Part shown: positions 30,709-31,966 of the stretch, one piece after another | How the letters are laid out: the number at the start of each line of letters is the position of its first letter | How positions within the stretch are numbered: position 1 is the stretch's first letter | Source of the DNA: a virus | Lineage: Duplodnaviria; Heunggongvirae; Uroviricota; Caudoviricetes | DNA length: 64,000 nucleotides | IMG/VR virus record: IMGVR_UViG_2724679236_000008 | Direction: 5' to 3' (one strand) | The notes under the pieces: model-generated | Told to the model about the DNA's origin: nothing | The model's input: only the letters and a program-made list of their open reading frames with translations | Databases searched by the model: none | Translations under genes and position numbers: made by a program

Positions 30709-30840
30709 ATGAGAAAACTATTACTACCGTTATTATTTATGGCTGGGACTGTTAATGCAGCATCACGCGTAAAGGAGATTTGTACCGATTATACGAAATA
30801 CCTTGGGCAAGTTTACGCCTTTGCGATCAATGACTATTAA
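30709..30840 (+). CDS. small secreted protein (43 aa) with signal peptide
   Basis: Own translation MRKLLLPLLFMAGTVNAASRVKEICTDYTKYLGQVYAFAINDY; SD AGGTGAGG; below ORF-track cutoff. Confidence 0.35.
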   Translation: MRKLLLPLLFMAGTVNAASRVKEICTDYTKYLGQVYAFAINDY

Positions 30841-30861
30841 TCCATGCGTAGGAGTGGATTT

Positions 30862-31179
30862 ATGCTGATTCGTTTGTTTTTAGTGCTTTCCTTTTTAACA
30901 TTTAATGTTTTTGCTGATGAAGTTGACTTTTCGAAGGTGGATTGCAATTCAGTGGAAACAAGAAAAGCTCTTATTGAAGAATATAACGAAATATTATCGT
31001 CATATGGAATAACAGTGGTTGATTATTATAATCAAAAAACTATTCAGAAAGGAATAAATAAACTGGTCTGTTATGGGGTTTACAAATATTCAGATGGCTC
31101 TTCGGAGTATGTTATTTATAAAGCATACCCAAATAGTCTTGGTGAATTAATTAGTGAGTTTAAACCGATTAATGAGTGA
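30862..31179 (+). CDS. secreted protein (105 aa from ATG 30862) with signal peptide
   Basis: MLIRLFLVLSFLTFNVFA signal peptide; SD TAGGAG; AT-rich coding region. Confidence 0.5.
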   Translation: MLIRLFLVLSFLTFNVFADEVDFSKVDCNSVETRKALIEEYNEILSSYGITVVDYYNQKTIQKGINKLVCYGVYKYSDGSSEYVIYKAYPNSLGELISEFKPINE

Positions 31180-31186
31180 ATGAAAA

Positions 31187-31966
31187 ATGAAATTATTTAA
31201 TGTAATAACATTTTGTTGTGCTATTTTTGCTGGAAGCGCGATAGCTGATAATAAATTGCCAGATTGGCTTTCTACCTCAAAGAAAGATTATGATTTAGTA
31301 AGGGCATTCTATTTGTCTGGATTTGCTTCGAAAGCAATGAGCAATCAATTTGGTTATCATTTGCCATCTGAGTTGGTTAATGATTTTAAAGATAATGAAT
31401 TTGCTGCTCAGGAAAAATGGAACACAATTCCAATTGTGTATGGTGAAATAAAATCCATAAGAATGGTGAATAATAAACCAATTGTAGAGTTATTTACTCC
31501 AGGGGAAAATGCAACGCCACTAAATTATATCAAATTGAAAATATTGGATTCAAAGCAAGACTCTCTGTTAAAACTAAAAAAAGGGGATGATATATATGCA
31601 GTGTGCTCCGGTGCTAATTTTAGCTTAGTGCCAATTCTGAGCAACTGCACTCCAGCAACAGACGTCATTGATGCTGCACTCTCTTTTTCTGGTGAATATA
31701 TGTTCCCTGCTTTTGATTCTTTTTCACCTACTAAGCAAAACGTCAAATATATATTCACAAATCAAGATCCTGTTCAGATGATGAATTTTATAGGGTACCT
31801 ATCCTTAGTCGATACAACGAAGGATAAGAATAAAATGGATATGGTTCGTAAGTGTACGCCTTGGAAGCCGGAATGTTCACAACAATTCGTTGATGTAATG
31901 GAAGGATTTGATAGCATCATGTATAAATATGAGGGAGAATTTAAAAATTACATAGAATTAAAATAG
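31187..31966 (+). CDS. secreted/periplasmic protein (259 aa), possible superinfection-exclusion (Sim-like) function
   Basis: Signal peptide MKLFNVITFCCAIFAGSAIA; occupies the position next to c4 where P1 carries sim. Confidence 0.45.
   Translation: MKLFNVITFCCAIFAGSAIADNKLPDWLSTSKKDYDLVRAFYLSGFASKAMSNQFGYHLPSELVNDFKDNEFAAQEKWNTIPIVYGEIKSIRMVNNKPIVELFTPGENATPLNYIKLKILDSKQDSLLKLKKGDDIYAVCSGANFSLVPILSNCTPATDVIDAALSFSGEYMFPAFDSFSPTKQNVKYIFTNQDPVQMMNFIGYLSLVDTTKDKNKMDMVRKCTPWKPECSQQFVDVMEGFDSIMYKYEGEFKNYIELK

Follow-up and report, generated by a model that had tools for sequence, protein, structure and literature searches.

Phages and plasmids encode several proteins of the cell envelope that protect the cell carrying them. 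The T4 membrane proteins Imm and Sp block genome delivery after adsorption, with Sp inhibiting the tail lysozyme; SieA of P22 and gp15 of HK97 are prophage-borne inner-membrane proteins that block the entry of DNA into the cytoplasm; and Llp of T5, Cor of phi80, and TraT of the F plasmid are exported lipoproteins that protect the carrier cell. In phage P1, SimC excludes superinfecting P1 once the phage has adsorbed but before its DNA enters the cytoplasm, and simC has been called the "superinfection exclusion gene" of P1 (PMC2409434). The simA, simB, and simC genes were non-essential for lytic growth in a clustered regularly interspaced short palindromic repeats interference (CRISPRi) screen (PMC10695390), and simC-simB-simA is one of eight hyper-variable regions in P1-like phage-plasmids (PMC9603915). 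Here, we report an analysis of an AT-rich islet at positions 30709–31966 of a 64,000-nt stretch of Caudoviricetes DNA (IMG/VR record IMGVR_UViG_2724679236_000008; the whole stretch is termed the window), which we identify as a sim (superimmunity) operon. The sim gene cluster was reportedly described in work of 1982–1990, having been known since 1982; it is annotated in the P1 reference genome, and the operon found here is thus an already known one.

We estimate a probability of about 0.9 that the islet is the sim operon of a P1-type phage-plasmid. In a megablast comparison of positions 30400–32200 with phage genomes, the segment matched P1 (AF234172/3, NC_005856, and OP279344) at 98.3% DNA identity with 100% coverage, and M34382, the original "P1 sim region" record, at 97.5% identity; over 1801 nt, it differs from P1 by 31 substitutions and one indel. 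The genes annotated in P1 beneath this match (AF234172 46786–48070) are simA, simB, and simC, the products of which differ from those of the window by two, two, and one residues, respectively (95% identity for SimA, 98% for SimB, and 99.6% over 259 aa for SimC). The 259-aa ORF (open reading frame) corresponds to "sim region ORF 2" of GenBank M34382 (99.2% protein identity), which is the ORF to which the original analysis of the sim clone assigned the function. The order of the P1 annotation under the match is C1 operator Oc4, c4 promoters, PsimA, simA, simB, simC, LPsit, pmgC, tub, pmgB, and sit; the window is identical to P1 both in gene order and in the set of elements that flank the sim genes (C1 operator, c4 promoters, and LPsit), with the same synteny of kilA-ant-icd-c4, then sim, then pmgC-tub-pmgB-sit. 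The cassette that contains the operon is 100% identical to that of the IncY phage-plasmid pEA4_97 of Escherichia albertii. An initial annotation, made from the letters of the sequence, had noted that the position of the islet matches that of P1 sim; the comparison takes this further, in that the ORFs are P1 simA, simB, and simC themselves and do not merely occupy the same place.

The other structural claims of the initial annotation were likewise borne out. The three ORFs are on the plus strand, with exactly the sizes proposed (43, 105, and 259 aa) in the ORF listing, in which the middle ORF opens at 30844 (111 aa) and has a second in-frame ATG at 30862 that yields the 105-aa version. The surrounding DNA is AT-rich: the GC content of 30611–32124 is 0.333, versus 0.473 ± 0.036 for all 1514-nt windows across the stretch, of which 0.18% have a GC content this low, and the window-wide minimum (0.327) falls in the sim cassette. 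The C4 RNA, icd, ant, and kilA are all encoded on the minus strand, and the direction of sim transcription is away from c4/icd/ant, beginning just past the C1 operator Oc4 (Table 1). The simB and simC genes are tightly spaced (simB stop codon at 31177–31179, simC ATG at 31187), and the terminator of the sim operon precedes the late tail promoter LPsit. Across the whole window there are eight C1 operator-like sites (≤3 mismatches to ATTGCTCTAATAAATTT), versus 0.34 expected by chance, which would fit an intact P1-type C1 regulon. Seven of the substitutions relative to P1 are bunched in the predicted PsimA region (30613–30645).

Table 1. Coordinates of the sim operon, its control sites and flanking genes, and other features mentioned in the text; positions refer to the window unless preceded by the handle of another locus.
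Feature	Position	Strand	Remarks
C1 repressor operator Oc4/Op51	30596–30612	−	One mismatch to the consensus; left cassette edge; name transferred from P1 annotation
C1 operator-like sites	659, 10248, 10259, 13781, 28937, 30596, 57908, 61758		
AT-rich exchangeable cassette	30611–32124		Whole sim operon and terminator; bounds from P7 homology
PsimA, predicted sigma-70 promoter	30618–30644	+	CTTAAT-N15-TCTAAT; weak; position mapped from P1 annotation
simA	30709–30840	+	43 aa: signal peptide and 26 residues
simB	30862–31179	+	105 aa; in-frame ATG at 30844 gives the 111 aa annotated in P1
simC (sim gene proper)	31187–31966	+	259 aa
Intrinsic terminator ending the sim operon	31999–32032	+	9-bp stem with 5 GC pairs (hairpin 31999–32022), T-rich tail
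LPsit, late promoter of the pmgC-tub-pmgB-sit tail operon	32127–32145	+	Mapped from P1 annotation; right cassette edge
C4 antisense RNA of the divergent immI operon	30330–30415	−	Rfam RF01695, 70.8 bits
C4 a1/b1 targets	30483–30535	−	Rfam
icd	30062–30283	−	Immunity operon
ant	29031–30065	−	Immunity operon
kilA	28067–28867	−	Immunity operon side
SimA-long gene (gp35)	L003 1811–2458		179–246 aa family, exported
SimA-long gene	L006 5059–5598		Same family
SimA-long gene	L007 1921–2568		Same family
Small ORFs in second low-GC stretch	62205–62546, 62626–62913, 63065–63604		

The window differs from P1 in the upstream start codons of two genes. The P1 reference annotation uses upstream starts that lengthen simA to 52 aa and simC to 264 aa; in the window, the annotated ATG of P1 simA is an ATT at 30684, and a change of TGG to TGA at 31183 closes the five-codon N-terminal extension of simC. 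The destruction of both longer starts by natural substitutions supports the shorter ORFs, in which the signal peptide is placed exactly at the N terminus. The ATG of simB at 30862 is preceded by an AGGAG Shine-Dalgarno sequence, and PHROG 14329, which represents the SimB family, has a length of 105 positions. On four plasmids examined, the Prokaryotic Genome Annotation Pipeline (PGAP) called SimC as 259 aa and SimB as 105 aa, and made no simA call. Based on the lost P1 starts, the Shine-Dalgarno sequence, the PHROG length, and the PGAP calls, we regard 43, 105, and 259 aa as the best gene models for simA, simB (from 30862), and simC, and these are probably the true products.

All three proteins begin with a predicted Sec-type signal peptide, as initially proposed, when judged by rules covering a positively charged n-region, an apolar run (10–15 residues here), a small-X-small cleavage motif, a lipobox, and hydropathy. 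The predicted signal peptide of SimA comprises the n-region MRK followed by LLLPLLFMAGTV, with cleavage at VNA↓A; that of SimB, counted from M7, comprises MLIR followed by LFLVLSFLTF, with cleavage at VFA↓D; and that of SimC comprises MK and a 15-residue apolar run, with cleavage at AIA↓D after residue 20. Maillou and Dreiseikelmann are said to have reported in 1990 that a 20-residue leader is removed from SimC, and the processing of P1 Sim is reportedly SecA-dependent. Mature SimC would have 239 aa (27.3 kDa, isoelectric point 5.2) and contains conserved cysteine pairs (140/154 and 223/230) that are retained in relatives at 40% identity and below, and mature SimB (~10 kDa) has a conserved Cys28/Cys70 pair. 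Neither a lipobox ([LVI][ASTVI][GAS]C) closing the signal peptide nor a membrane-spanning segment past it was found in SimA, SimB, or SimC. Beyond the signal peptide, the 19-residue hydropathy peaks at 1.25 in SimC and at 0.45 in SimB. The conserved cysteine pairs and A-X-A cleavage sites fit soluble, disulfide-bonded periplasmic proteins for both SimB and SimC.

Such properties set SimC apart from the proteins that it resembles in effect. Imm and Sp of T4 are membrane proteins, whereas SimC appears to be soluble and periplasmic; SieA and HK97 gp15 reside in the inner membrane, whereas SimC has a predicted cleavable signal peptide and no later hydrophobic segment; and Llp, Cor, and TraT are lipoproteins, whereas SimA, SimB, and SimC lack a lipobox and Sim leaves adsorption unblocked. 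The sim proteins have no Pfam, PHROG, or PADLOC match to families of the T4 Imm or Sp, P22 SieA, or HK97 gp15 type.

SimC residues ~60–157 are best described as a predicted, divergent PF12869 "tRNA_anti-like" OB-fold core flanked by helical segments. SimC matches PF12869 with 19.1 bits (E 1e-3; gathering threshold 23.5 bits), and its relatives P0012, P0014, and P0015 score above the threshold. Compared with PF12869 and 3F1Z, SimC has an extra helical segment at its N terminus and, at the other end, a domain of ~100 residues that contains a separate cysteine pair, and a sequence profile search of the PDB for a solved relative of SimC gave nothing below E 0.19. The family is small, with four clusters in an index of 5.8 billion proteins; in a search of 1.84 billion representatives, 15 matches had E ≤ 1e-3, and just two of these are full-length (84% and 39% identity). 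One relative, P0012 (121 aa; E 9e-9 to the SimC core), is an exported PF12869 OB-fold protein. Its gene (L009 and L010, 6001–6366 in each) is an opposite-strand moron within a P2-like prophage tail operon, flanked on one side by the tail X/gpD genes and on the other by a 530-aa gene presumed to encode the tape measure. In two P1-like phage records, ON470615.2 (L016) and ON470617.2 (L017), simC is split by indels of 1–2 nt and annotated as two ORFs, representing either real decay or sequencing error.

The SimB family is also narrow (12 clusters), and a SimB gene is present upstream of SimC wherever SimC occurs. This pairing persists in a divergent P1-like element (GCA_005690115.1, contig AADOKG010000015; L006), with 61% identity for SimB and 40% for SimC at the corresponding locus and with c4 upstream. 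Separately, orf79 of phage D6 (L011 3348–4244) encodes a 298-aa protein in which a SimB-like domain (residues 52–137, 52% identity) is fused to an unrelated C-terminal region of ~160 aa; this gene is located away from the c4/icd/ant region of D6, and there is no SimC nearby. Neither SimA nor SimB had a Pfam match above threshold, NCBIfam gave no matches for the sim proteins, and PADLOC-DB v2 gave no match for SimA, SimB, or SimC, nor for gp35 and gp34, the products of an alternative cassette described below.

The assignment of an exclusion function to SimC of the window would follow from published work on P1 SimC, which is 99.6% identical, and the 259-aa protein is the only one of the three with an experimental tie (in P1) to an exclusion phenotype. 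The initial proposal that the secreted proteins of the islet are candidates for superinfection exclusion holds for SimC, but probably does not extend to the 43-aa ORF, which is most likely a gene remnant. SimA matches only positions 1–41 of the 213-position PHROG 3933, and is 88% identical to residues 1–41 of gp35 (215 aa), encoded by the first gene at this locus in phage vB_EcoM-Ro157c2YLVW. A database search with gp35 recovered 28 clusters of proteins of 179–246 aa in E. coli, Salmonella, and Klebsiella, many encoded on contigs of ~90–97 kb, a size typical of P1-like elements, and some named "simA domain protein"; these SimA-long proteins have a conserved N-terminal domain with a cysteine pair, one cysteine of which is retained by SimA of the window. 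In the family alignment, the latter spans only the first 43 positions, identifying it as a fragment and not a full member of the SimA-long family. DNA homology to the long simA gene stops at 30848, 8 nt past the simA stop codon; by 30862–30871, homology to the simB gene of a different element has begun. The in-frame extension "MRRSGF" of P1 simB aligns with "ESMRKK" of the long SimA protein, and looks like the fossil of a deletion junction. In the L006 element, the order is c4 RNA, SimA-long (179 aa), SimB, SimC, and pmgC-tub-pmgB-sit; based on this gene order, a three-gene operon with a long simA looks ancestral. We therefore consider simA of the window, as in P1, to be most likely the truncated 5′ relic of a gene for a secreted protein of 179–246 aa, which probably contributes nothing. 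The candidate that simA is instead a remnant of P7 upf50.5 was rejected, as P7 homology is already lost at 30610, before simA begins; its actual full-length relative is of the gp35 type.

Alternatively, all three ORFs, including the 43-aa SimA, could constitute a working, three-protein exported exclusion machine. SimA and SimB are annotated in P1 as "putative superimmunity accessory functions," and the short simA, with its good Shine-Dalgarno sequence and signal peptide, remains open, from an unchanged start to an unchanged stop, in each of the seven sim-cassette sequences compared. However, the restriction of SimA to the first 41–43 residues of its family with a single cysteine of the pair, the break in DNA homology so close to its stop codon, the lack of a PGAP call, and the credit given to ORF 2 in the original clone analysis make this unlikely. 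Among the same seven sequences, the ratio of amino acid-changing to synonymous variable codons is 5:1 for simA, versus 3:5 for simB and 12:12 for simC; this hints at relaxed selection on simA, with numbers too small for proof.

The sim operon occupies a site at which P1-like elements carry different genes. Homology to P7 halts at 30610, in the C1 operator, and restarts at 32125, just before LPsit, and homology to Ro157c2YLVW also restarts at 32125. The interval 30611–32124, between the C1 operator/c4 promoters and LPsit, is therefore taken to be a site of allelic exchange, occupied in P1-like plasmids by one of at least three cassettes, each of which encodes exported proteins. The P7 cassette (L002 1413–2788) encodes the lipoprotein Upf50.5 and the DUF5384 protein Upf50.0, both with signal peptides, whereas the Ro157c2YLVW cassette (L003 1951–2992) encodes gp35 (SimA-long) and gp34 (YfjT-family). 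These two cassettes share with the sim cassette the insertion point, products with signal peptides, and a GC content lower than that of the flanks (0.41 versus 0.47–0.49); the P7 proteins are nevertheless unrelated to sim, and the DNA common to the sim and Ro157-type cassettes is confined to the first ~240 nt, which hold the promoter region and the 5′ end of simA. Unlike the sim cassette, the P7 type encodes a lipoprotein with weak TraT similarity (upf50.5, L002 1696–2217; PF05818, E 7e-5, 23.1 bits versus a cut-off of 31 bits). Counting PLSDB plasmid records with ≥80% coverage, the flanking pmgC-tub segment is present in 496, the sim cassette in 137, the P7-type cassette in 166, and the Ro157-type cassette in 81 (125 if any match is counted). 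In ~160 records, the match to the sim cassette is limited to its first 214–238 nt, which contain the promoter region and the simA 5′ end. A metagenomic contig (L007) carries simB-simC followed by SimA-long and a YfjT-like gene in tandem. A search of the cassette edges for repeats that could mediate site-specific exchange recovered only the terminator hairpin and weak chance pairs; thus, homologous recombination in the conserved flanks would suffice and is the simpler reading of the exchange.

The alternative cassettes at this site that encode a lipoprotein and a DUF5384 protein, together with the foreign-looking low GC content of the islet and its absence from libraries of defense systems, are compatible with a horizontally acquired moron that alters the host envelope for the benefit of the bacterium and has no role in exclusion. 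We regard this as very improbable: published genetics of the near-identical P1 gene show exclusion, the P7 lipoprotein is weakly TraT-like, and the intact SimA-long protein contains a motif of a phage injection protein (see below).

With regard to mechanism, we posit that mature SimC, through its OB-fold core, would wait in the periplasm as a soluble protein and bind a component exposed by the contracted tail tip of an incoming phage, with SimB as a co-inherited accessory partner. The target would most likely be Sit, which in P1 unites tape measure and SLT transglycosylase activities (according to annotation and domain content), such that the DNA conduit across the peptidoglycan and inner membrane would never be completed. 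In T4, exclusion by Imm works through binding to the tape-measure protein (10.64898/2026.03.06.709160), which makes a Sit-directed mechanism plausible for the sim locus as a whole. All of the hints toward Sit are indirect; two others are that the sim locus adjoins the sit operon and that the gene for the SimC-type OB protein P0012 is a moron beside what is presumably a tape-measure gene. We name Sit as the specific target of SimC only tentatively.

It is also possible, at odds that we place clearly below even, that SimC masks or alters a component of the host envelope needed by the P1 tail tip or DNA, leaving the phage itself untouched. This is a general mode of exclusion in reviews (PMC4737114; 10.1101/708461), with HK97 gp15 (via PtsG) and DicB (via ManYZ) as precedents for a route through a host factor, and SimC has no detectable similarity to P1 virion proteins; a comparison of SimB and SimC with the virion proteins that the window encodes gave no similarity (best E 0.064). 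However, both precedents are proteins of the inner membrane, unlike the apparently soluble, periplasmic SimC, and the near confinement of the SimC family to P1-like elements better fits a phage-specific target. A third possibility is that the OB fold of SimC binds the incoming DNA, or the end that leads it, in the periplasm and either stalls it or exposes it to periplasmic nucleases. During injection through a contractile tail, the DNA is inside the tube and the tape-measure channel and is not exposed to the periplasm, as the T4 channel also illustrates; moreover, 3F1Z owes its nucleic-acid label to a prediction, the acidic character of mature SimC does not favor DNA binding, and the structure model of SimC has low confidence. 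On these grounds, we consider DNA binding quite improbable.

A further indirect hint connects the sim locus to Sit through the SimA-long family. Residues 121–168 of gp35 match Sit at 37118–37249 of the window (Sit residues ~927–969, in its C-terminal part) with 48% identity (E 2e-7 by tblastn against the whole window; 43.1 bits pairwise), and the SimA-long protein of L006 (59% identical) matches the same site in Sit with 39.7 bits; the maximum for 300 shuffles of gp35 was 27.3 bits. The shared motif, GMRxxxVxGTLExRARGxG, covers ~25 aa, and is retained in the 51%-identical Sit of L006. It is present in six of nine SimA-long representatives, and the other three resemble the second, shorter repeat of Sit (NAPGMR). 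No mention of a motif shared between SimA-long and Sit was found in the papers searched. The presence of a Sit motif in a secreted protein suggests a competitor or poison of Sit that acts in the periplasm. By extension, full-length SimA in the ancestral three-gene operon might have acted as a periplasmic decoy or poison for incoming Sit, with SimB and SimC as partners, and the truncation of simA in P1 could then explain a weak Sim phenotype seen only in multicopy; we view this scenario as rather doubtful.

Several observations weigh against sim of the window as an exclusion operon directed at Sit. The sim promoters are weak and are predictions only, and a consensus promoter scan did not recover PsimA and found no more sites than in shuffled sequences. 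The P1 Sim phenotype has reportedly been seen only with multicopy clones, leaving its strength in a single-copy prophage doubtful. SimC itself scores under the gathering threshold of PF12869, and its structure models are of low confidence (predicted local distance difference test scores of 31.6 and 45.8), such that the predicted fold match is merely corroborative. The sim family is absent from PADLOC and NCBIfam, and neither SimB nor SimC resembles in sequence any of the proteins that the window encodes. Binding of SimC to Sit is inferred, and simA of the window lacks the Sit motif, so that the motif lead comes from outside the window. Finally, the simC frameshifts in two phage records, if real, would mean that the gene is dispensable in nature.

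Two features were noted elsewhere. A second low-GC stretch (<0.40) is present at 61882–64000, past the prt/darB junction. Megablast gave no match for it among P1-like phages in the phage collection (of 61300–63950, only the initial 582 nt match), and the stretch looks like a replacement on the darB side; it contains small ORFs (Table 1). In L006, positions 4758–4837 match the Rfam family for isrK, an Hfq-binding small RNA (62.1 bits), overlapping the c4 a1/b1 target region, and the equivalent region of the window has no Rfam match to isrK at threshold.

Because the sim copy of the window is nearly identical to that of P1, its value as a discovery is small. The comparison nonetheless indicates that P1 "SimA" is most likely a gene fragment, and the natural variants probably correct the gene starts of the reference P1 annotation. 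In combination, the swappable cassette for exported proteins, the predicted OB fold of SimC, and the Sit motif of SimA-long may provide the first concrete lead on a mechanism that the literature calls unknown. If the proposed role of full-length SimA is true, elements with an intact operon (such as L006) would show strong exclusion even at single copy, and the target of Sim would be Sit.

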